A stretch of DNA of 13,572 nt from a virus (taxonomy: Duplodnaviria; Heunggongvirae; Uroviricota; Caudoviricetes), in the IMG/VR virus record IMGVR_UViG_2671180637_000017, positions 1-13,572 of that record, one strand, 5' to 3'. Positions 35 to 13,572 of the stretch are shown piece by piece (position 1 is the stretch's first letter; each line of letters begins with the position of its first letter). The position numbers and the translations under genes are program-made. The notes under the pieces are model-generated. The model saw only the letters and a program-made list of their open reading frames with translations, had not been told where the DNA came from and searched no databases.

Positions 35-922
35 TTAGGCCTGTGTCCATATTACGTGGGTAGGATCATACGTCGTGTCACCACAAATCCACGGCACATT
101 TACAGCACTGCCACCATGACACTGCGCGTTAAACACAGTGAGGTCAGCACGAAACTGCTTCAGCATGGCTGTAAACAGCGCAGGTTGCTGTGCGTGGGTG
201 GCGGCGCTCATGTCAAACTCTCCCTGCATCCAGCACACCGCCAGCAACACATTTTTCGGGTTCTTCTGTAATGCAGCTTTAGTGCGCGCAATCAGGTCCT
301 GATATAACGGTTTACCCACCCCCCAGCGCGCCGAATCCTGGCTGGCCCCCGCGTCCGCACTGAATGTCCCCTCCGCGCCCTGGGTGAATGCCGAACCACC
401 ACGACAGCATGGTACCAGCAGGATCCCCGCGTTATTCGGGATATACGGGAGCAGTTTTTTGGCAATATGTAAGCCCTGGCCGACACAGCCGTACTGCCCT
501 TTGCTCAGGTCTGCCTTCGGATGATTCAGCGTACTCATATCCTGCACATCATGCAGACAGTGGTCAGCCGGGATGATGTCGTTATACGTACAACTCTCTC
601 CACCCGGAGTTACCGTGCTGCGGCGCGCCAGCTGTTTAATGCGCGGATCCGGAGCATCGTAAGAATCCGGTAACGGAAGCCCTTCACCGTAGGCCATGCC
701 GTTGGACTGTCCGGCAAGCACAACCACGTAGAACCAGTCCGGCTCAGTTGCACCACTGACGACCACATCACCTTCTGCTGCAATCGCCTGCATCAGGGTA
801 TAAGGGGTTATGGCCACCGGACTACCAAACGGCTGCCAGCCCTCTTTCAGTTTATGTGTCAGCTTTTCCGCAAGGTCTGACGGCGACGCCGCCCTGACAA
901 CATCATAGTATTTAAATGCCAT
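35..922 (-). CDS. Prophage esterase: DUF1737-like N-terminus fused to an SGNH/SASA-family (sialate O-acetylesterase-like, NanS-p-like) domain
   Basis: 295-aa ORF with the SGNH-type GQSN block (VVVLAGQSNGMAYGEG). Its position downstream of Q and the tRNA array matches where this esterase family sits in lambdoid and Stx-type prophages. Family call is from memory, not searched. Confidence 0.7.
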   Translation of the reverse strand: MAFKYYDVVRAASPSDLAEKLTHKLKEGWQPFGSPVAITPYTLMQAIAAEGDVVVSGATEPDWFYVVVLAGQSNGMAYGEGLPLPDSYDAPDPRIKQLARRSTVTPGGESCTYNDIIPADHCLHDVQDMSTLNHPKADLSKGQYGCVGQGLHIAKKLLPYIPNNAGILLVPCCRGGSAFTQGAEGTFSADAGASQDSARWGVGKPLYQDLIARTKAALQKNPKNVLLAVCWMQGEFDMSAATHAQQPALFTAMLKQFRADLTVFNAQCHGGSAVNVPWICGDTTYDPTHVIWTQA

Positions 923-1371
923 GAATCCTCCCGGCCGGGATAATATTGTGAGTAAAATGAGGAGCGGGCTGAAGTCCGGAAGTTACAGGACAATGGCAGA
1001 AGAGAGACAACAGTCCGCAATACGAAAAAGGCCGCGCTATTGCGCAGAGTGATTACTGTCGGATATTATTCGCCAGCTGAAATATTACTTCACGTTTTGT
1101 TGTTTATTCCTTGCCGCCCGCGTCTCCCTGCGCGGGCTTTTTTTGTCCATAAGAAAGCCCCTCCGGAGAGGGGCTGGAGAGTGGCGCTATGTGCCATTGC
1201 ATGGTGCCGGGTGCCTCCCGGTGAATTCAGTACCAGCACCTGAATCCGCGATTATCCCATATACCTACTCGCTGATTGCCCCTCCGCACAGGTGGATTCA
1301 CCATGCCAGTTTCTTTTAACAAACTCCCCGCAAAACAGACAACTGTCAACCGTCTGAATTGTGAGACATTT

Positions 1372-1397: not shown

Positions 1398-1413
1398 GGG
1401 AAAATAAGTGTAG

Positions 1414-1487
1414 CGCGTTGTACTGGAGTCGAACCAGTGACCGATTGCTTAGAAGGCAATTGCTCTGTCCTGCTGAGCTAACAACGC
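1414..1487 (-). tRNA. tRNA-Arg (anticodon UCU)
   Basis: Cloverleaf folded by hand on the minus strand: acceptor GCGTTGT/ACAACGC, D-stem GCTC/GAGC, anticodon stem ATTGC/GCAAT with loop CTTCTAA, T-stem ACTGG/CCAGT with loop TTCGACT, discriminator G. The 3' CCA is not encoded (CTA follows). Confidence 0.8.
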
Positions 1488-1500
1488 AGAATACCGATAA

Positions 1501-1576
1501 TGGACCACCACCGGGGACTCGAACCTCGCACACTCAACTTAAAGGGTTGACGCTCTTTCCTGATGGCTAGTGGCGG
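1501..1576 (-). tRNA. tRNA-like sequence, possibly degenerate; anticodon UUU if the loop is in canonical register
   Basis: 76-nt tRNA-shaped sequence with encoded CCA: acceptor CCGCCAC/GTGGTGG (one G-U), T-loop TTCGAGT, anticodon stem TCAAC/GTTGA with loop CCTTTAA. It has C rather than U at position 33, a poorly paired D-stem and an A-C mismatch in the T-stem. Confidence 0.45.
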
Positions 1577-1577
1577 T

Positions 1578-1653
1578 TGGTGGCCCTTGCTGGATTTGAA
1601 CCAGCGACCTGGCGATTATGAGTCGCTCGCTCTCACCACTGAGCTAAAGGGCC
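1578..1653 (-). tRNA. tRNA with CAU anticodon, ileX/ileZ-like tRNA-Ile2 (lysidine type) or Met
   Basis: 76 nt with encoded CCA: acceptor GGCCCTT/AAGGGCC, D-stem GCTC/GAGC, anticodon loop CTCATAA, T-loop TTCAAAT. It is the Q-proximal tRNA, as ileZ is in Stx/lambdoid prophages. Confidence 0.8.
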
Positions 1654-1836: not shown

Positions 1837-1865
1837 AATATATGCCTTTCAATCTACTTTTGCAA
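1837..1865 (-). promoter_or_regulatory. PR'-like late promoter with a downstream -10-like pause element (candidate qut region)
   Basis: Minus strand TTGCAA (plus 1860-1865), 17-bp spacer, TATATT (plus 1837-1842). The -35 overlaps the 3' end of the Q ORF. The predicted start is near 1830, followed by TGATATT (about 1819-1825) resembling a sigma70-dependent pause element. Confidence 0.5.
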
Positions 1866-2538
1866 CACTTTGCTTTGAAAATGCCGCCTTTTGTTTTGAA
1901 CGTGTTCTCATTACAAATAATAAAGCCTCACTATCCAGTCGGTGAAAAATGTGTTTCATTGCAACCCAGTGACGAGTAAATGTTTTGGACCAGTTTTTAG
2001 TTGTCACTCCCGCCAGTAATGCCAGCTCCTGATATTCATAACCTTCCCCACCAAAAAGTTCTGCTTTTACTGCCTGCGCCGCCAGCCAGATTAATTTTTT
2101 CAGGCGTTCCTGCGTTTTCCCAGCAATTTTTCTGGTACCGGATTGAGTATTAAATTCATTCCACGCCCACTGTGTTATCGCGATCTGATATTCCCAACAA
2201 ATACTCCCGCTGTAACACCACAACAACCAGGCTTTATGATGTTCTTCAAGAGACAGAACAGCCCGCCGCCACGATGATGTCAAAAACTCAACCGGACTGA
2301 CGAGAGGAATTGACGCCCCCTTCGCCAGCGATTGCTTTCCCGGGATTGGTGGATTATCCCGCGTTATCATTTTTCCAGTCACTTCATCGCGGTACCGGAT
2401 TTTTTTACGCCTGTAACGCCCTGTATCAAACATGGCATTCTCCTGCCAGGCCTCAAGCTGCCCTTTTGTTGATCCACTCAAATCGGCGGTGGCAATCATG
2501 AGTTGCTCACGAACAAACTGTAAATACTGGTTATTCAT
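1849..2538 (-). CDS. Late-gene antitermination protein Q-like
   Basis: 229-aa ORF immediately downstream of rusA with an ATGA start/stop overlap, followed by a PR'-like promoter, short terminator and tRNA array. The call rests mainly on synteny; sequence family not verified. Confidence 0.5.
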   Translation of the reverse strand: MNNQYLQFVREQLMIATADLSGSTKGQLEAWQENAMFDTGRYRRKKIRYRDEVTGKMITRDNPPIPGKQSLAKGASIPLVSPVEFLTSSWRRAVLSLEEHHKAWLLWCYSGSICWEYQIAITQWAWNEFNTQSGTRKIAGKTQERLKKLIWLAAQAVKAELFGGEGYEYQELALLAGVTTKNWSKTFTRHWVAMKHIFHRLDSEALLFVMRTRSKQKAAFSKQSVAKVD

Positions 2539-3957: not shown

Positions 3958-4347
3958 TTACCTCCAGATCCGTTGCTGGAATGTGCGGGACGGACGCGGT
4001 GGGCGTTCGGAGTAAGGAAGCCTGACGGAGATTATCCAGTGACGGTAGTCGAGGCTAAGGGCTTTTTTAACCTCGTATCCGCGCCTGCGGTAACACTGAA
4101 TTATCCATTCAGCCTGCTCTTCAGTGCATGGTGGATGCTGGAACCAGTCCGATTTGAATGCATGAAAACGCCGTCCGCACCTGCTGGCAAAGACGGCAGA
4201 ATCATCAGAATTGTGTAATTTGGTATCGTGCGCCATCGGTTGTCTCTGCTGGCGCAGCAGGTGCCAGTTGTTCAGGCTGGCGTATAAAGTATAAATAAAC
4301 TGGTTCCAGTGTAAAGCCCCTACATTAATGGAATAAAAGTCAAACAA
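3958..4347 (-). CDS. Hypothetical prophage protein, start uncertain
   Basis: ORF abutting the start of the DUF968-like gene. The track start at 4347 is a TTG without a convincing SD; the internal ATG at 4234-4236 (MAHDTKL...) would give a 92-aa protein and may be the real start. Confidence 0.4.
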   Translation of the reverse strand: MFDFYSINVGALHWNQFIYTLYASLNNWHLLRQQRQPMAHDTKLHNSDDSAVFASRCGRRFHAFKSDWFQHPPCTEEQAEWIIQCYRRRGYEVKKALSLDYRHWIISVRLPYSERPPRPSRTFQQRIWR

Positions 4348-4694: not shown

Positions 4695-4850
4695 TTACTC
4701 CTCAGGTTCGTAAGCTGTGAAGACAGCGACCTCCGTCTGGCCGGTTCGGATTCGTACCTCGCAGAGGTCTTTCCTCGTTACCAGTGCCGTCACTATGACG
4801 GTTAAACAGATGACGATCAGGGCGATTAACATCGCCTTTTGCTGCTTCAT
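4695..4850 (-). CDS. hok: Hok-family type I toxin (51 aa), HokD/RelF-like
   Basis: MKQQKAMLIALIVICLTVIVTALVTRKDLCEVRIRTGQTEVAVFTAYEPEE: one transmembrane helix plus the conserved Hok C-terminus. Matches chromosomal HokD as I recall it; not verified by search. Confidence 0.85.
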   Translation of the reverse strand: MKQQKAMLIALIVICLTVIVTALVTRKDLCEVRIRTGQTEVAVFTAYEPEE

Positions 4851-4907
4851 AGCCTGCTTCTCCTTGCCTTTCGGCACGTAAGAGGCTAACCTAGATTTGC
4901 CGTTCAT
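4695..4907 (-). CDS. mok-like in-frame N-terminally extended reading frame over hok
   Basis: In-frame ATG at 4905-4907 with GAGG about 10 nt upstream, giving a 70-aa frame that shares the hok stop, as described for mok frames of chromosomal hok loci. Confidence 0.35.
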   Translation of the reverse strand: MNGKSRLASYVPKGKEKQAMKQQKAMLIALIVICLTVIVTALVTRKDLCEVRIRTGQTEVAVFTAYEPEE

Positions 4908-4958
4908 AGATTGAGCCTCAGATTAATGTTAAGCGTCTTGCAGGACGCGTAATGTTAA
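4899..4958 (+). ncRNA. Candidate sok-like antisense RNA
   Basis: Plus-strand TTGCCT (4864-4869), 17 bp, TAACCT (4887-4892) predicts a start near 4899. The transcript would be antisense to the mok start and SD and ends at hairpin GCGTC-TTGCAG-GACGC followed by GTAATGTT. Ends are predicted, not measured. Confidence 0.3.
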
Positions 4959-5446
4959 CTGGGGCTTTTCTCTATCTGCCGTTGGTGTTCATGCCTGAGA
5001 CAGATAGCCTCAAGCACCCGCAGCCATTCTACTTAACTCCCGTCACCTCGCCAATATGAAATCAGTCAGAAAGGCGATCCATAAGAACAACAGCAAGGCA
5101 ATAAATTGCCATTACAGCAGCAATAGCCAGCGCACATTTGAGAACCAGCACCACAACCTCCTGTATTGGACGTACACCAGTCCTGATAAATATGAGGCTG
5201 TCTCGTCAGTGATTCAATACAACTATTGGGTATAGTTTCTGTGATTTTGTTCTGTAGAAATGGAACACAACAACCAGTCACCACCAGCACTTCTTTAAAT
5301 ACGCCAAGTCCGACGCAAGCTAACCTTCTAGGCCGCTTTGAGCGAAGAGCGGACGCTCGCATCTGTCCCAACACACTGAGGGCTTCACGAACACCTAGGT
5401 GTACTCGTCAACTGGGAAAAAGTCAGATTATCTGCGTAAGTTTCAG

Positions 5447-5475
5447 CGTAAAAATTGGGCACTATAAAAGTGCCC
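5447..5475 (-). terminator. Rho-independent terminator closing the KAP NTPase island transcript
   Basis: Minus strand GGGCAC-TTTTATA-GTGCCC stem-loop followed by AATTTTTAC, 24 nt past the stop of the 713-aa ORF. Confidence 0.5.
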
Positions 5476-5498
5476 AAACTGTAGAAAAATACATAATG

Positions 5499-7640
5499 CT
5501 ATGTATCTGAGCCAAACATAGAGCGCCGCCTTGTTATTTTATAATAAGTGGGATTTTCATTATCCACCTCAAAATCAGAGAAGAAGTGGTTATCTCTTAA
5601 TGCTGTTAATAAACTTTGATTAGTTGAATCAACTTCAATTTTAGGTTTGCCTCGCCCCAAAATTTTACTGAACTCCGATAAACCAAGCAGATCAAGATAC
5701 TCTTTGCAAGTCGTCTTACTCAAATCCTTACCCGGCAACAAAGCGATTAGCAGTGCTATTTTATTCTGCATATTCAGTCCCTCTGCGACAAACAGGTTTT
5801 TTAGTAACGGTTCAGAAACATCATTAGGACTTGCTATCAATGCTGATATATCCTGTATTGCTCGACTCAAGATGAGCGACTGAGTAGAGGTTCCCCAAGT
5901 TTTATAAGATGACGTCAAGATTAGAAGTTCATCTGGTTTAAAATTATTTTCTAAAATATAGTCATTAACGACCTGAGAGTAATTCTTACTATAAATAGCC
6001 AACGGAGTTTTAACAAACTCGAGTAGCTTAACTTTCAAATCATCATCAACTTTCCAAGAAAGTATTGATATAGCCTCATCCAAAATAAAGTTATCAATCG
6101 TCATTAATTCAACGTATGCCCTGATATTCTTATGAATATAATAGGAAAGTTGCTCTGAATAGTTATCTCGTATGAAATTAAGTGGCGCAACATTCATACG
6201 AATAATATTTTTATCCACTAATATTTTGAACTTATCACTCGCGATATTACTAGCGCTAAAGGATGCTTTACAAATAATATTTAGTGAGCAAATTAATTTT
6301 TCATATTTATCATTTGATAAATCATTACAGATAACAATCGATTTAAATAATTTACCTTTAAGCTCGTTATCAATATTAATATTTTGAAAATTCAGGTCTA
6401 CATCAGTTCTATTGATAAATTCGATAAGTGAGTCATCCAGTCCATCAACATGTTCAAAATAAGAGACAATATTTTCCTCAGAGCACACTGCTCTATCTTT
6501 ATCCAACAAAGATGACCATAAAGATTCGCTCTCAACCTCACTCAGAGATGTCACGAAAGTTTGCAAAGCGTTTATATACTGGCCTTTTTGTTCATCAGAT
6601 ATTCCCTCATTATTAAGAACGGATAAAACAATGGATTCATCATCCACGATTGAACCATCACAACTAGATAAAACCATATCCAGATAGTCCCTAATATGGT
6701 TATTAACATAACTAGCCAAGGGAGAATCAGGTTGTGACATCACTAGTGTATAGTTCTTATGGCGAATATCATCTTCACTATTAAGCGTGTAAACCTTACT
6801 CAGCATTAAGGTCAGGTTGGAAAAATTAATATCATAAAGTGAATGCTGGTAAACCGCATCAAAGAGTACTTTATTTGCGTTTTCAAATTTAATACTGACA
6901 AAAGAGACGTTAAGCAACTTAAAACCACTAATTAATTTGTCAACCTTCGGTTCTGATATTGCTAAATAACCTGCCGAATCAGAGATGTAATCAGTCAGAC
7001 AATCATCAATATTAATGGCCTCGATGGCGTCATTGGCAGAATAATAAAACGTGCCTATAGAGTAGAGTTTAACCCAATCAGCAGAAAATTCACTCTCTGT
7101 CAGCGCATAAGAAAAAAACTCAGGCCACTGTGTATTTAATCGATTAATGAAGACAGGCTGAGCCCTCTCAGTTTCAAAGTAACCACGAATAAACTCAACT
7201 CTTCTATCTTTTCTTAGTTGTTTGAATAAACGTTTTATTAAGTTTACCTGGGCTGGCGTTTGAAGCAGATAAGCTAATAAATCAAAATTAAGCGCCTCTT
7301 CCTGTTCAAAATCCACTTCTCGAAGGCGGGCAACGACCAGCTTGGGGTTCTTGAGTTGATAAGTGAACTCTTTGCCTTTTTGATCGGTAATGCTGCGTAA
7401 AAACATCTTATCAATTCGACTCAGGCTATTTTCATAAAAATAGGTCATATAGTCGGTATAGGTTTCATCAATATAACCATCACGAATAAGGTATTTAAGC
7501 AAGTCAAAATACTCACTGCTTTTTATTTCATTAAAGTCTCTTTCCTCTCCAATTTCATTGGTATAGGTGAGTTTAAATATTTCATCAATGTTTTCTCTAG
7601 TTATTACTTCTTTAAGTCTTTTGTTTCTAGAATCAACCAA
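5499..7640 (-). CDS. Large alpha-helical protein, probably the C-terminal portion of the KAP NTPase gene
   Basis: 713-aa ORF in AT-rich DNA whose track start is a TTG. By hand translation the same frame stays open a further 75 codons upstream to 7865 (KKEIEAINDEILNSSQEVD...), where it meets the upstream ORF at an A6 run. Confidence 0.6.
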   Translation of the reverse strand: MVDSRNKRLKEVITRENIDEIFKLTYTNEIGEERDFNEIKSSEYFDLLKYLIRDGYIDETYTDYMTYFYENSLSRIDKMFLRSITDQKGKEFTYQLKNPKLVVARLREVDFEQEEALNFDLLAYLLQTPAQVNLIKRLFKQLRKDRRVEFIRGYFETERAQPVFINRLNTQWPEFFSYALTESEFSADWVKLYSIGTFYYSANDAIEAINIDDCLTDYISDSAGYLAISEPKVDKLISGFKLLNVSFVSIKFENANKVLFDAVYQHSLYDINFSNLTLMLSKVYTLNSEDDIRHKNYTLVMSQPDSPLASYVNNHIRDYLDMVLSSCDGSIVDDESIVLSVLNNEGISDEQKGQYINALQTFVTSLSEVESESLWSSLLDKDRAVCSEENIVSYFEHVDGLDDSLIEFINRTDVDLNFQNINIDNELKGKLFKSIVICNDLSNDKYEKLICSLNIICKASFSASNIASDKFKILVDKNIIRMNVAPLNFIRDNYSEQLSYYIHKNIRAYVELMTIDNFILDEAISILSWKVDDDLKVKLLEFVKTPLAIYSKNYSQVVNDYILENNFKPDELLILTSSYKTWGTSTQSLILSRAIQDISALIASPNDVSEPLLKNLFVAEGLNMQNKIALLIALLPGKDLSKTTCKEYLDLLGLSEFSKILGRGKPKIEVDSTNQSLLTALRDNHFFSDFEVDNENPTYYKITRRRSMFGSDT

Positions 7641-7735
7641 ACTTTCTCTTGATCTTGATATAAGCTCATTAATTTCTTCTATTTTACCATTAAATTTATT
7701 TTCAACACTTTCTTTTCTAGCCGCCCTTCTCTTTG

Positions 7736-9130
7736 CTATATCAGCTTTCTCAGCCTGATTATAGTGAGGATGATTATTATATCTAGATAATTCCTTATCG
7801 TATATAGCATCAACCTCCTGACTAGAGTTGAGTATTTCATCATTGATTGCCTCAATCTCTTTTTTCTATCTCTAATATCTTTTTCTATTTTCTTTATTTC
7901 TTCAATAATAAGGTTGTCTTTTTCACTAAATATGGTATAAACCATACCTTGATTAAGTTGCAACTCACTAAAATCTCTTGGGAAAATATTCTTATAGGCA
8001 ATAATGGCCAACATTTTATTACAGTCAAGTTCTGTCGTGTTTAATTTGTTATAATAAATTTGAAATTCGTTATAAATATTCTTCAATATTCTCATATCAT
8101 CAATATATAAAGACATCCCTTGTAGAAATCTTTCATTGAACAACTTGAGAATACCACCACCATCAAAATGTGTGATAAACTGATCGTAAGAGTTAGAACT
8201 ATCAACAACAGGAATAACTGGAATGATATAATCAAAGAATTTGGTTCTATCCTTCGAAATGAAGATATCATCACGAAGCAAGTAAATAAAACGTAACGTC
8301 GATTTCTTGTGCCCTGCTGTGTCCCGTTGAATATTAACCAGTCTGTTAACCTCATGAAGACGTTCAAAGATGTTATTACTATTAAAACGGTCCATGTCTT
8401 CAAAAACAATGGCATCAGCATCAACGTTCTCGAAAAGGTACAATACTTCATTTAAATATCTATCGAAATAAGACTCGTTACTTTCTTCAAAAATCTCTAT
8501 TTCATTACCCTGTAAATTTATTTTCTTAAGAACATTACGATTCTTTTGGATTTTTATTAACTTGTAAATGAAAATACAAGATAGGATAGTACATATAAAC
8601 CCACTAATTAAAAGCGTATCGTATTTAGTTGATAATGTAAGTAGTGTCTTTATATTACCTTCAGATAAAAGTGAAACAAACTTTTCCCACTTATTAAATA
8701 GCGTGATATGTAGTATCATGGCGATAAATAACACCGTAAAGATGGTGTTTATCACAATGTTGTTAGTTTTTATTTTTTTCTTTACTTTAAAATGTGTCTG
8801 GGGAATATCATCAGCATTAATTTGGTGAATTAACTGGTTAAGAACTTTACCTTCTAACGCGGTTTCATTTATATCTTTACTTGGTTCATTAGTTTCAGCT
8901 TCCTCAATCGATCTGAAATGAGCAAGTGAGATATGAACAAACTTTATATTTGAATGACTTTTCTTATAGGATTCGATAAGACTACTTTTTCCTGCGCTAT
9001 ATTGCCCTGATATCGCAACATTTTTTAGATCGTTATTGGCAAAAACAAAATCTATCGCATTTTTATATACACCCAGCTCAACATCGCTGAACGGAGTTAA
9101 CTTTTGAAATTTATAGCTATCATCACTCAT
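7736..9130 (-). CDS. KAP-family P-loop NTPase (N-terminal NTPase module with membrane insert)
   Basis: Walker A GQYSAGKSS (plus 8984-9007), two hydrophobic helices (IVINTIFTVLFIAMILHITLF and TLLISGFICTILSCIFIYKLI), then Walker B-like AIVFEDMDRF. A transmembrane insert between Walker A and B is the hallmark of KAP NTPases. SD GGGAAGGGA lies 5 nt before the ATG. The last ~45 codons look like out-of-frame read-through. Confidence 0.8.
   Translation of the reverse strand: MSDDSYKFQKLTPFSDVELGVYKNAIDFVFANNDLKNVAISGQYSAGKSSLIESYKKSHSNIKFVHISLAHFRSIEEAETNEPSKDINETALEGKVLNQLIHQINADDIPQTHFKVKKKIKTNNIVINTIFTVLFIAMILHITLFNKWEKFVSLLSEGNIKTLLTLSTKYDTLLISGFICTILSCIFIYKLIKIQKNRNVLKKINLQGNEIEIFEESNESYFDRYLNEVLYLFENVDADAIVFEDMDRFNSNNIFERLHEVNRLVNIQRDTAGHKKSTLRFIYLLRDDIFISKDRTKFFDYIIPVIPVVDSSNSYDQFITHFDGGGILKLFNERFLQGMSLYIDDMRILKNIYNEFQIYYNKLNTTELDCNKMLAIIAYKNIFPRDFSELQLNQGMVYTIFSEKDNLIIEEIKKIEKDIRDRKKRLRQSMMKYSTLVRRLMLYTIRNYLDIIIILTIIRLRKLI
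7859..7865 (-). other. Candidate -1 frameshift site A_AAA_AAG (or 1-nt indel in an A6 run) joining the two KAP ORFs
   Basis: The upstream frame reads AGA AAA AAG (R K K). A -1 slip or one extra A yields KKEIEAIN... continuous with the 713-aa ORF. The heptamer is the same as the dnaX slippery site. Confidence 0.4.
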
Positions 9131-9211
9131 TGATATCCCTTCCCAATCTTCACCGAGAGAGCTGGCTTTCGGAGTTAATCAAACAAAATCATGCAGATAA
9201 AATTTCGCCTT

Positions 9212-9220
9212 ATTATAGCA
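9212..9220 (-). promoter_or_regulatory. Extended -10 promoter (TGCTATAAT) for the KAP NTPase gene
   Basis: Minus strand TGCTATAAT with no good -35, about 80 nt upstream of the KAP ATG. Confidence 0.4.
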
Positions 9221-9529
9221 GACACAACTGCAAAGATTAGCTAAAGCCTCGTTGTTTTCTTCATCTATCCCTATAATTTTACACTACAGTTAGCACTTAC
9301 TATACCTGAAAGCTTTGCTCGTAAAGAGCACAATCGCAAGTCAGCAAAGCACGACTTTGCAATCGAGCGCCGCTAAAACAGTGCTGAATCGCTACGACTT
9401 AGGCAGCCATCTTATCGGTTGGCAGATAATTTCTAACTTCCGCTTCTGGCACAAAGCGGACAACCACGATAGCTCTATCCTGTGCCACAAAATGTCAATT
9501 CACATCTTAACTAATGCATTTTAATCTCG

Positions 9530-9992: not shown

Positions 9993-11069
9993 TTACCCCC
10001 TGAAGCCCGGCGGAATTTCGGTATCCGGTTCAGAAATATGATTCACACAACGCTGGTTGTTCGTGCCGTTTACCGGGAGCAACCAGGGGTTTTCAAAATT
10101 CCGGTCCGGTCCAAAAAACGTCGTCGCTCGCTGAACAAATTCCGTTCCCGTTTTCCCGGTAACCGCCAGGTATCTTGCGTAACGCCTCACGCCATCCAGC
10201 ATGGCCTCTGGTGGCACCCCCTCGCGTAATCTGGCCTTCCAGGCACTGAAAGCGGATTTCTTCGGGTTTGCCCCGGCACGCAACGGGTACTCCCGCCAGA
10301 TCTGTTCGAACACATCCGGATAATCCACTCGTCCCACAGGCTGCCCGGTGTTTTCCGGGACTACCCGATCGGCTTCCCGCTGAATGGCGGAATCGGCTTC
10401 AGGCTGCTGCAGTTGGTGTGATTGCTCCGGCCTTGCGGTCATCACCTGCTGCACAGCGCCCGAATCGGCTTTCAGCGCATACGCTGAATCGGCTTCCGGT
10501 GTCGTGCCTGCTGGCTGACCAGGGTTGACGGTCTGAACATCCCCTGCCTGGTTCGTGGCGTTTTTTACGCCATGAACCATAGTATTTTGATCTTCTTGAT
10601 CTGTATCTTTATCTGTATCTTTATCTGTCGTGACTCGTCGTGACATGTGCGTGACATTTCGTGACGCGTCGTGACAATCGCCATTTTGTTCCCGCTTTCT
10701 TTCCCTCTCACGCTGCGCCCTCTTGCGCTCTGCCGGAGATTTTGCGGTTTGCGAAATATTGCCGTTGTCCTCTTTAAGCACCTGGCGTTTTTCCCATCCA
10801 GTGATTAAATCACCATCAAGTACCCGCCCCTGCATCGTCTGCAAAATTGAATCAATTACCTCTTCTGTCACGTCGAGCGCACTTGCCAAATCTTCTGTCG
10901 TGACATCAATGTGACCTCGCGTGACATTTCGTGACGCGCTCACCAGGAGGTGGATATACACTGCCATCACTGTTGCAATTGGCTGCCCTGACACCCTGGC
11001 AATTGTTCGCCACTTAGGGTCATTTGGCATGTCATGCCATAATCTGAGCCAGGCGTTAGCCATACTCAC
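9993..11069 (-). CDS. Replication initiator, lambda O-like / replisome-organizer type
   Basis: 358 aa: N-terminal winged-helix-like region (AWLRLWHDMPNDPKWRTIA...), low-complexity acidic/basic linker (DKDTDKDTD, ERKRAQRERERKRE) and a C-terminal domain. Iteron arrays lie inside the coding sequence, as ori-lambda lies inside O. Confidence 0.6.
   Translation of the reverse strand: MSMANAWLRLWHDMPNDPKWRTIARVSGQPIATVMAVYIHLLVSASRNVTRGHIDVTTEDLASALDVTEEVIDSILQTMQGRVLDGDLITGWEKRQVLKEDNGNISQTAKSPAERKRAQRERERKREQNGDCHDASRNVTHMSRRVTTDKDTDKDTDQEDQNTMVHGVKNATNQAGDVQTVNPGQPAGTTPEADSAYALKADSGAVQQVMTARPEQSHQLQQPEADSAIQREADRVVPENTGQPVGRVDYPDVFEQIWREYPLRAGANPKKSAFSAWKARLREGVPPEAMLDGVRRYARYLAVTGKTGTEFVQRATTFFGPDRNFENPWLLPVNGTNNQRCVNHISEPDTEIPPGFRG
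10588..10675. repeat. Origin-like element: two GATC sites, tandem ATCTGTATCTTT repeats, then five CGTGAC iterons phased at 10-11 bp
   Basis: CGTGAC starts at 10629, 10639, 10650, 10660 and 10670 (spacings 10, 11, 10, 10). Immediately preceded by about 2.5 copies of ATCTGTATCTTT from 10599 and GATC at 10588-10591 and 10598-10601. Confidence 0.55.
10867..10938. repeat. Second iteron cluster (CGTGAC/TGTGAC at 10-11 bp phase, with an inverted GTCACG)
   Basis: CGTGAC at 10899, 10920, 10930 and TGTGAC at 10910; inverted copy GTCACG at 10867-10872. The 20-mer GCGTGACATTTCGTGACGCG occurs in both clusters (near 10649 and near 10919). Confidence 0.45.
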
Positions 11070-13141: not shown

Positions 13142-13572
13142 TAGCTAATCAACAAAGCTAAGGTTAGTAATTAAGGAGTTCTCCACGGGTGAGGTGGAGT
13201 GCGTGCGCCGGACACGGGTGAGCATCCGGCATTGACAGTTTACTGAAAGGATATTTCCCTGAAAAGTCAGACCATAACGCGAAAGCGCACGGCGAGGTAG
13301 CTGGTTCATAGATAGCCTGTCGTTAAATTTTCGTCGACCGTGCGCTTCCGGTTGTGGCAATCCGCGAAATGGCGCGGCGGTAAGTATGGCGGGGTTATTC
13401 CTTCCCCCGTTGAGGACACCGGGTTGTCAGGTTGACCATACGCTTAAGTGACAACCCCGCTGCAACGCCCTCTGTTATCAATTTTCTGGTGACGTTTGGC
13501 GGTATCAGTTTTACTCCGTGACTGCTCTGCCGCCCTTTTTAAAGTGAATTTTGTGATGCGGTGAATGCGGCT

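Follow-up and report, generated by a model that had tools for sequence, protein, structure and literature searches.

The window, a stretch of 13,572 nucleotides of phage DNA, carries on its minus strand a large ORF whose product the earlier note had read as a membrane-tethered P-loop NTPase of KAP architecture with no known function. This raises the question of which NTPase family the protein belongs to, whether it indeed sits in the membrane, and whether the gene is complete. We think it very likely that the ORF is the N-terminal domain of a prophage-borne gene for a YobI-family (Tmn-type) transmembrane P-loop NTPase, of which the copy found here is frameshifted and most likely a pseudogene. 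The elements of the NTPase domain are as follows.

7736–9130, minus strand: ORF1, 464 amino acids, assigned by Pfam PF20693, the PADLOC Tmn profile and alignment to the intact gene
8981–9007, minus strand: Walker A (P-loop) GQYSAGKSS, residues 42–50; its GQYSAGKS part (G42–S49) occupies 8984–9007
8384–8413, minus strand: Walker B strand AIVFEDMDRF, residues 240–249, with the [DE]DxDR signature; AF2 strand at 240–244
8267–8296, minus strand: strand 4 with the sensor-1-like motif LRFIYLLRDD, residues 279–288; AF2 strand at 280–285

Residues 1–422 of ORF1 form an N-terminal YobI-type P-loop NTPase domain with a membrane hairpin, and residues 423–464 are an out-of-frame tail that runs up to a premature stop. 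The Pfam YobI-ATPase model (PF20693), named after Bacillus subtilis YobI, aligns with residues 22–398 over its entire length (profile positions 1–363 of 363; E = 8.6e-124, 414.2 bits against a 27-bit cutoff). The same model scores the intact allele at 410.9 bits, and RefSeq names the intact 1210-amino-acid protein 'YobI family P-loop NTPase'. At E ≤ 1e-3 the family takes in 4145 cluster representatives, most of them proteins of about 1200 amino acids. Both sequence signatures of YobI proteins are present in ORF1: the Walker A pattern GxxxxGK[ST] as GQYSAGKS (residues 42–49), and the Walker B pattern hhhh[DE]DxDR as IVFEDMDR (residues 241–248). Across 55 homologues, the residues G42, G47, K48 and S49 of Walker A, F243, E244, D245, D247 and R248 of Walker B, and R280, F281, Y283, L284, R286 and D287 of the strand 4 motif are invariant. 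The core of ORF1 is an ASCE-type five-stranded P-loop domain with a Walker A motif and a Walker B motif of the [DE]DxDR type.

Neither the window ORFs nor the intact protein nor plasmid Tmn is matched by any NCBIfam model, a search of PDB sequences with the family profile gave no match at E ≤ 1, and Foldseek against the PDB returned weak AAA+/ORC matches, none of them at E ≤ 1e-3. The AAA+/STAND initiator-type NTPases (Cdc6/ORC, TnsC, RFC, Apaf-1/NLR) are about 10% identical to the ORF1 protein and, unlike it, have no membrane hairpin in the core; nor do they share the C-terminal arms described below. Compared with the YobI-like family (PF20693), we see no difference at the level of domains, except that in the window allele the last two thirds of the protein are no longer in frame.

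Between the two Walker motifs, the P-loop fold is interrupted by a predicted membrane hairpin.

8696–8758, minus strand: TM helix 1, IVINTIFTVLFIAMILHITLF, residues 125–145; hydropathy peak 2.29; AF2 helix at 122–143
8615–8695, minus strand: inter-helix loop, residues 146–172 (27 residues), predicted to be periplasmic
8555–8614, minus strand: TM helix 2, LLISGFICTILSCIFIYKLI, residues 173–192; hydropathy peak 2.16; AF2 helix at 170–196

The two strongly hydrophobic segments that the earlier note had described in the stretch from Walker A to Walker B have been borne out. Their Kyte-Doolittle (KD) peaks of 2.29 and 2.16, computed in 19-residue windows, compare with a classical threshold of about 1.6, and exactly two hydrophobic segments lie between the Walker motifs in 137 of 148 diverse family representatives, counting those with recognisable motifs. 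The span of 8555–9007 given to the interrupted domain was also right, with Walker A at 8984–9007 and the end of TM helix 2 at 8555, and Walker B (8384–8413) falls just outside it. What had been called a short polar loop is 27 residues long and contains two short helices in the AF2 model (145–154 and 159–168).

In principle, these hydrophobic stretches could be buried core helices of a soluble protein rather than membrane spans. The topology is a predicted one, the AT-rich gene gives a protein with much Ile, Leu and Phe, and one window with KD ≥ 2.0 appears in 19% of shuffles. Two separate windows at or above 2.0, however, arose in just 22 of 2000 composition-preserving shuffles (1.1%), and the segments are kept in 137 of 148 diverse relatives. 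In an alignment of 134 sequences, residue identity in the TM columns is 0.34, against 0.71–0.81 in the Walker regions, yet mean hydropathy in these columns holds at 2.0–2.2, a pattern of lipid-facing helices and not of a protein core. The flanks, moreover, obey the positive-inside rule. A Lys-rich stretch (HFKVKKKIK) precedes TM helix 1, a Lys/Arg-rich one (KLIKIQKNRNVLKK) follows TM helix 2, and Lys plus Arg have a density of 0.293 in the outer flanks but of 0.096 in the loop (n = 138), in agreement with a hairpin of N-in/C-in orientation. The earlier note had proposed structure prediction as a check, and the AF2 model of ORF1 (pLDDT 78) shows continuous helices at 122–143 and 170–196 between a strand at 64–68 and the Walker B strand at 240–244. 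Lastly, purification of Tmn yielded a membrane complex solubilised in detergent (PMC13001434). Taken together, these observations make a soluble protein exceedingly improbable.

We therefore return to the membrane hairpin. Its position between strand 2 and Walker B, together with its positive flanks, gives a predicted topology in which the NTPase parts on either side of the hairpin are cytoplasmic and the 27-residue loop faces outwards, and the equivalent loop of Tmn has been modelled as periplasmic (10.1101/2022.08.21.504612). Hydropathy, AF2, family conservation and the positive-inside pattern thus all predict the two TM helices within the P-loop domain that are typical of YobI proteins, and the central idea of the earlier note, an NTPase tethered to the inner membrane by a hairpin within its P-loop fold, holds at the level of prediction. 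The two-helix insert is not a new architecture: it is a published signature of Tmn and an already-known hallmark of YobI/Tmn anti-phage membrane ATPases.

The comparison with KAP NTPases holds in part. Some published work calls Tmn a KAP NTPase (10.1101/2022.08.21.504612; PMC11846954), whereas later papers place it in the YobI family and a 2026 preprint keeps YobI and KAP apart as two families (PMC13001434). Our profile searches side with the later view, in that the protein falls into Pfam YobI-ATPase and the Pfam KAP_NTPase model (PF07693) gave no match at E ≤ 1 with the intact protein or at E ≤ 0.1 with the window ORF; PifA matched that model in the same scan at 3.2e-43. The KAP family (PF07693; PifA of plasmid F, Kidins220/ARMS) resembles the protein in having an ASCE P-loop NTPase that plays a part in conflicts with phages, in its Walker B of the D-D/E-x-D-R type and in a long insert that separates strand 2 from Walker B. 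This insert reportedly holds two or four TM helices in many KAP members, and the KAP architecture, as reportedly defined by Aravind and colleagues in 2004, has TM helices inside an NTPase domain that is itself cytoplasmic. By this definition, ORF1 has the same arrangement, on the same predictions as for the YobI insert. PifA differs in having no hydrophobic segment and an unrelated C-terminal region. When we aligned a YobI profile (134 sequences) with a PifA-clade profile (119 sequences) in hhalign, the probability was 93–94% (E = 1e-7 to 3e-7), with a confident part of just 34 columns that covers strand 1, Walker A and strand 2. With default settings, the alignment with PifA ends after strand 2 whether the TM insert is kept or excised, and it takes a relaxed alignment to bring FEDMDRF opposite DDLDRL, and RFIYLLRDD opposite RFTHILCYD of PifA. 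We did not accept this long relaxed alignment as proof of KAP membership.

Downstream of the NTPase domain, the reading frame is broken, and the gene continues in another frame.

7860–7865, minus strand: A6 homopolymer (T6 on the plus strand), the frameshift site; A7 in intact alleles (codons R-K-K-E)
5499–7862, minus strand: C-terminal part of the gene in the shifted frame, an open frame of 787 codons, listed as ORF 5499–7640 (713 amino acids)
5455–5477, minus strand: terminator-like GC hairpin with a T-run, 22 nt past the stop codon

Deletion of one base (A7 to A6) breaks ORF1 after residue 422. All 31 matching complete E. coli genomes have A7, differing from the window by this one base, and in these genomes, as in many other Enterobacterales, the 1210-amino-acid protein (WP_001278661.1) is uninterrupted. 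The 787-codon frame downstream of the break is 100% identical to residues 424–1210 of the intact proteins. Where the intact allele encodes a single polypeptide that joins the NTPase/TM core to the sensor arms, the window contains ORFs of 464 and 713 amino acids instead. That the next ORF is the C-terminal sensor part of a gene split by a frameshift had been missed in the earlier note. As for a separately initiated second ORF, we rejected it, since the only start on offer, a TTG at 7640, is preceded by no more than a weak purine-rich stretch.

A difference of a single base in a homopolymer, with A7 in every matching complete genome, might reflect an error of sequencing or assembly, in which case the A6 tract would be artefactual and the living strain would carry an unbroken gene. 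We consider this unlikely, as the exact 464-amino-acid product followed by the 713-amino-acid ORF is found on four contigs from independent assemblies, including the Logan assemblies of ERR178191 and ERR6109018 and the NCBI assembly GCA_001285545.2, and the same error would have had to occur repeatedly. Because it recurs in this way, the broken allele is probably a real pseudogene.

Still, a split gene may function, either through two cooperating polypeptides or through slippage or phase variation at the poly-A tract that restores the frame in some transcripts or cells. Homopolymers are classical substrates of slipped-strand changes and transcriptional slippage, the downstream frame is fully open for all its 787 codons, and the N-terminal 1–440 region of Tmn has been modelled as self-assembling (PMC13001434). 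IS elements have also inserted into the gene in other strains, which suggests that it is costly and often switched off. A tract of six or seven A is, on the other hand, short for efficient slippage, and the first start available to the downstream part is the poor TTG mentioned above. In Tmn, N-terminal fragments without the distal arm failed to bind the trigger, and mutations in the arms abolished defence (PMC13001434). Complementation in trans finds no support, and we judge a functional split gene to be very unlikely. The truncation caused by the A7 to A6 change parts the membrane NTPase core from the sensor arms, and for this reason the copy in the window is, judging from its sequence, most likely a non-functional pseudogene. 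In annotation, ORFs 7736–9130 and 5499–7640 are best merged into a single disrupted defence gene of the Tmn type (YobI family) that the prophage carries as cargo, instead of being listed as an orphan ORF next to a membrane NTPase of unknown kind.

The part of the gene that follows the frameshift links the protein to Tmn over its entire length. This C-terminal part is presumed to be the sensor and to consist of a coiled-coil proximal arm and a long alpha-helical distal arm. BLASTP of the C-terminus against Tmn recovered just a patch of 75 residues, and hhalign of the C-termini alone gave a probability of 99.2% (E = 3.5e-19) over 674 colinear columns, which points to homology with the alpha-helical arms, proximal and distal, of Tmn. 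An AF2 model of the C-terminal 787 residues is almost all helix and begins with a long helical pair; its confidence is low (pLDDT 63, pTM 0.32) because only near-identical full-length homologues could be used for its alignment, and we took from it the secondary-structure content alone. Judged by profile alignment, the C-terminal region of about 790 residues, alpha-helical throughout most of the model, is a homologue of its counterpart in validated Tmn and runs colinear with it.

Tmn (PADLOC PDLC02220), found on IncF plasmids of E. coli and Klebsiella (for example WP_286005026.1; Tmn-25 of ECOR25), is the closest known system. Both Tmn and the intact protein are single large polypeptides of about 1200–1270 amino acids, encoded by a stand-alone gene on a mobile element, and both combine a Walker A motif, two TM helices and a hhhFEDxDRF Walker B (FEDLDRF in plasmid Tmn). 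Plasmid Tmn and the intact protein align colinearly over 1116 residues (E = 7e-50), with about 28% identity in the NTPase domain, and their arms are homologous at the profile level only. The PADLOC Tmn profile matches the window ORF1 at E = 6.9e-57 and the intact protein at 1e-66. In the latter case the score is 224 bits, with the best stretch at residues 9–439 (profile positions 27–474 of 1273), that is, mainly in the N-terminal third; plasmid Tmn proteins reach 2052–2224 bits from end to end (2052 bits for an 'anti-phage transmembrane ATPase'). The prophage protein thus belongs to another clade. It is somewhat shorter (1210 amino acids compared to about 1270 in Tmn), and its gene lies in a chromosomal lambdoid prophage whereas Tmn is encoded in an IncF plasmid's leading region. 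In addition, the window copy is frameshifted.

The function left blank in the earlier note can now be filled in for the family, since Tmn is an experimentally studied defence system (PMC13001434), and the suggested link to phage defence was right. According to the 2026 preprint, which includes an 11.6 Å map, Tmn forms a membrane decamer that senses a phage protein with its C-terminal helical arms, burns ATP and exports Mg2+, so that infection is arrested by plasmolysis (PMC13001434); its mechanism is treated further in two other papers (10.1101/2022.08.21.504612; PMC11846954). Walker-dependent protection, oligomers in the membrane, ATP turnover set off by a trigger, export of Mg2+ and plasmolysis have been shown for the tested Tmn variants only (PMC13001434), none of which appears to come from the prophage clade. 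By analogy, the intact prophage protein would oligomerise in the inner membrane and bind a phage-encoded trigger protein with its C-terminal arms. ATP hydrolysis would then rise, leading to export of ions (Mg2+), depletion of ATP and plasmolysis, and phage development would be arrested as a result. For the prophage clade, the trigger, the ion specificity and the defence role itself are extrapolated from tested Tmn, given the level of identity in the NTPase domain, the PADLOC match confined mainly to the N-terminal third and the small BLASTP patch in the C-terminus.

The genomic setting bears on this extrapolation. The gene lies in a low-GC island (29–38%, compared to about 50%) of a DicF/Qin-type lambdoid prophage, between replisome-organiser/DUF977 replication genes on one side and hok/sok, RusA and Q on the other. 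A scan of the island found fewer sigma-70-like sites than in shuffled sequence (11 vs 17.9), and we claim no promoter. The gene's place inside a prophage, adjoining replication genes, could mean that the membrane NTPase serves the prophage in some other way, for instance by excluding superinfecting phages when their DNA enters or by controlling lysis or the membrane. The distance of the clade from tested Tmn would allow for this, the outward-facing loop could contact incoming phage components (as suggested in 10.1101/2022.08.21.504612), and PifA, a KAP relative, counters T7 at the membrane. But homology and colinearity with Tmn extend over the whole protein with its sensor arms, and the catalytic motifs that were mutated in Tmn are invariant here. 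The gene also behaves as typical accessory defence cargo: it is a variably present low-GC moron, found in 32 of 5426 E. coli genomes, and a collection of 50,697 phage records contained neither a DNA match nor a protein homologue. A role other than defence is for these reasons improbable, and a Tmn-type defence function remains the reading we favor for the intact gene.

This chromosomal, prophage-borne clade lies far from the studied plasmid Tmn and has been inactivated repeatedly, by the frameshift in one lineage and by IS insertions elsewhere. Without opening a new question, it is a reasonable candidate for probing the reach of the Tmn mechanism and the range of its triggers. There is a small chance that the Enterobacterales clade is functionally distinct from tested Tmn, with another trigger, exported ion or effector output, and that the A7/A6 change and the IS hits reflect reversible on/off switching of a costly defence gene instead of decay. 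Such a divergence is conceivable because the arms resemble those of Tmn only as profiles and because the nearest relatives outside Enterobacterales, proteins of about 60% identity, come from Bacillota, and from gut metagenomes. Within Enterobacterales, the clade is borne by prophages of E. coli, Shigella, Klebsiella, Serratia, Yersinia and Pectobacterium at 90–100% identity.

The membrane-hairpin candidate lies in an ORF on the minus strand whose P-loop domain was located by motif mapping:

7736-9130 (-), ORF of 464 aa with the P-loop domain
8981-9007 (-), Walker A, GQYSAGKSS, residues 42-50
8696-8758 (-), first hydrophobic segment, IVINTIFTVLFIAMILHITLF, residues 125-145
8555-8614 (-), second hydrophobic segment, LLISGFICTILSCIFIYKLI, residues 173-192
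8384-8413 (-), Walker B, AIVFEDMDRF, residues 240-249

The span 8555-9007 singled out in the earlier note is correct: it covers everything from Walker A through the second helix, and Walker B follows just downstream. The loop between the helices, which it had called short, is a 27-residue linker (NKWEKFVSLLSEGNIKTLLTLSTKYDT). The Kyte-Doolittle (KD) maxima of the two segments are 2.29 and 2.16 (19-residue windows). Owing to its high Ile, Leu and Phe content, the protein gave one window of KD ≥2.0 in 19% of composition-preserving shuffles, but two separate windows in only 1.1%.

An exhaustive HMMER search returned 4145 cluster representatives (E≤1e-3), mostly of ~1200 aa. We surveyed the hydropathy of the best 150 of these 4145 (43-68% identical to the query), 148 of which had recognisable motifs. 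Exactly two segments of KD ≥1.6 lie between Walker A and Walker B in 137 of the 148, and 122 of those 137 have no such segment elsewhere; the two-segment insert is a trait of the family. In an alignment of 134 sequences, the segments have a top-residue frequency of 0.34 and mean column hydropathies of 2.03 and 2.19, and conservation in the Walker regions is 0.71-0.81. At the sequence level, this low identity combined with retained hydropathy is the signature of predicted lipid-facing helices rather than of a soluble core. The outer flanks (15 residues each) contain 0.293 lysine plus arginine per residue and the loop 0.096 (n=138), a pattern that fits a predicted N-in/C-in hairpin with its loop outside. 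In line with the two helices proposed earlier, an AF2 model of the N-terminal domain (residues 1-422, 55 homologues; mean pLDDT 78) renders the hydrophobic stretches as helices 122-143 and 170-196, at a block pLDDT of mostly 80-91, and adds two short helices between them. These helices are preceded by strand 37-42, the P-loop, helix 48-58, strand 64-68 and helix 89-103, and followed by helix 226-234, the Walker B strand 240-244 and strands 280-285 and 301-305. In this order, the core is a five-stranded ASCE fold, and the modelled hairpin is inserted after its strand 2 and before its Walker B strand.

The architecture had been matched to that of the KAP P-loop NTPases. The layout is indeed KAP-like and a distant relationship to KAP is plausible from the sequence comparisons, but Pfam KAP_NTPase gave no match at E≤1 (PifA of plasmid F, a KAP member, gave 3.2e-43); the protein falls outside Pfam-defined KAP, and its precise assignment is YobI/Tmn. 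Aligned with hhalign, the YobI and PifA-clade profiles reached a probability of 93-94%, with confidence limited to strand 1, Walker A and strand 2; relaxed settings paired FEDMDRF with DDLDRL and RFIYLLRDD with RFTHILCYD. No hydrophobic segment was found in PifA. Aravind et al., who defined KAP in 2004, reportedly put the transmembrane segments inside the NTPase domain in their title. The naming of Tmn, an anti-phage membrane NTPase system, differs between papers. Wu et al. (10.1101/2022.08.21.504612) describe it as a KAP NTPase with two transmembrane helices inserted in the P-loop domain, as do Yamashita et al. (PMC11846954), whereas a 2026 preprint (PMC13001434) places Tmn in a separate YobI family with the internal two-helix insert as its signature, and KAP NTPases are said there to have four transmembrane helices outside the P-loop domain. 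The membrane-inserted P-loop recognised at the outset is in essence the published definition of the YobI/Tmn family, and the function, then called unknown, has been described at the family level through the Tmn mechanism (PMC13001434).

The 464-aa ORF, which matches Pfam YobI-ATPase (PF20693, E 8.6e-124) and the PADLOC Tmn model (E 6.9e-57), is one piece of a split gene. The island at 5400-9300 was found in 32 of 5426 complete E. coli genomes (≥99% identity in 31), where it holds a single 3633-nt gene, 'YobI family P-loop NTPase' in RefSeq (WP_001278661.1, WP_032241071.1). Aligned with this intact gene, the window lacks one base of an A7 tract (A6 at 7860-7865); consequently, the frame is lost after residue 422 and reaches a stop at 7736. 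ORF 5499-7640 (713 aa) encodes the C-terminal remainder of this protein, in a frame that is open from 7862 (787 codons). The remainder matches residues 424-1210 of the intact E. coli and Shigella proteins at 100% identity, and is 90-97% identical in Klebsiella, Serratia, Yersinia, Morganella, Cedecea, Pectobacterium and Kluyvera. When the N-terminal 422 residues served as query in a word-indexed protein search, the best 120 matches were all ≤734 aa, many marked partial, so intact relatives are under-represented there; the search with the C-terminal part did list full-length 1210-aa proteins. Over 201 bp around the A-tract, all 31 matching complete genomes differ from the window, 30 of them by that single base; strain ST2350 differs more (98.5%), with extra bases (204 vs 201 bp). 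Four contigs carry exactly this pair, the 464-aa product and then the 713-aa ORF; they come from the record of the window itself (GCA_001285545.2, CYEI01000041.1) and from the Logan assemblies of ERR178191 and ERR6109018. Since these assemblies carry the same split, the frameshifted allele is most likely real and common to a lineage. In strain D1 an IS66-family element disrupts the gene, and in strain NN5 IS5-family elements do so; together with ST2350, these alleles point to recurrent independent inactivation.

Proteins named 'anti-phage transmembrane ATPase' (1264-1271 aa) on IncF plasmids of E. coli and Klebsiella score 2052-2224 bits with PADLOC Tmn; the intact protein scores 224 bits, mainly over its N-terminal third. 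It shares with plasmid Tmn the layout of Walker A, two transmembrane segments and FEDxDRF, at ~28% identity over the NTPase domain. A colinear BLASTP alignment of the two extends over 1116 residues (23% identity, E 7e-50); without the N-terminal domains, only a 75-residue patch aligns. A 125-sequence profile of the C-terminal part matches the Tmn C-terminus over 674 colinear columns (probability 99.2%, E 3.5e-19). Because homology spans the full length at low identity, we assign the intact protein as a full-length yet distant Tmn homologue of a different clade. A low-confidence AF2 model of the C-terminal 787 residues (pLDDT 63) is almost all helix, with a long helical pair first. Tmn has been described with a coiled-coil proximal arm and an alpha-solenoid distal arm, and the model is compatible with these. 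The closest relatives outside Enterobacterales are ~60% identical and come from Bacillota and gut metagenomes, and island GC is 29-38% in a context of roughly 50%, versus about 45-58% in flanking prophage DNA; together, these suggest acquisition from a low-GC gene pool.

By analogy with the mechanism in PMC13001434, the intact protein would assemble into an inner-membrane oligomer held in place by its hairpins, its NTPase cores forming the hub and its helical arms lying in the cytoplasm. These arms would bind an early phage protein (the trigger of Tmn-25 is RIIB of T2; PMC13001434), after which ATP turnover would rise and Mg2+ be exported. The cytoplasm would collapse by plasmolysis without depolarisation, arresting phage development, and the drop in ATP could switch on Gabija and Septu. 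Our own analysis contributes the domain layout, the conservation of the catalytic motifs, a predicted hairpin with its topology, and the arm homology to Tmn; the Walker residues mutated in PMC13001434 correspond to positions invariant in 55 homologues. In Tmn, fragments that lack the distal arm fail to bind the trigger, and defence is lost when the arms are mutated (PMC13001434). Because the frameshift parts the core from arms that Tmn needs, the window copy is probably inactive. Such a protein is already known as a kind; added here are its disruption in this genome and a prophage-borne YobI/Tmn clade divergent from the experimentally studied Tmn.

A lambdoid prophage carries the gene as stand-alone cargo. 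By falling coordinate, the order is DicF RNA, immunity region, YdaT-family gene, replisome organiser, DUF977, the YobI/Tmn gene, sok/hok, DUF968, RusA, antiterminator Q, three tRNAs, STnc100 sRNA and a NanS-like esterase:

13484-13535 (+), DicF antisense sRNA (Rfam, 76.7 bits)
9993-11069 (-), 358-aa ORF, 'phage replisome organizer' in RefSeq relatives (no Pfam match at E≤0.001)
5455-5477 (-), terminator-like hairpin 3' of the YobI/Tmn gene
4845-5019 (-), sok antitoxin RNA (Rfam, 107 bits)
4695-4907 (-), Hok/Gef ORF (Pfam E 3e-23)
1849-2538 (-), antiterminator Q
1413-1653 (-), three tRNAs (Met-CAT, Lys-TTT, Arg-TCT)
1145-1335 (-), STnc100 sRNA (130 bits)
35-922 (-), DUF1737 and SASA acetylesterase, NanS-p-like

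DicF identifies a DicF/DicB (Qin/Kim)-type prophage; in related loci, dicB, ydfB and ydfC adjoin DicF. The island-adjoining ORFs 3958-4347 (-, 129 aa) and 5066-5374 (-, 102 aa) had no Pfam match. A hok/sok type I toxin-antitoxin module (4695-5019, -) lies directly downstream of the Tmn-type gene, and the late region (35-2538, -) has the layout of Stx-type phages, without toxin genes.
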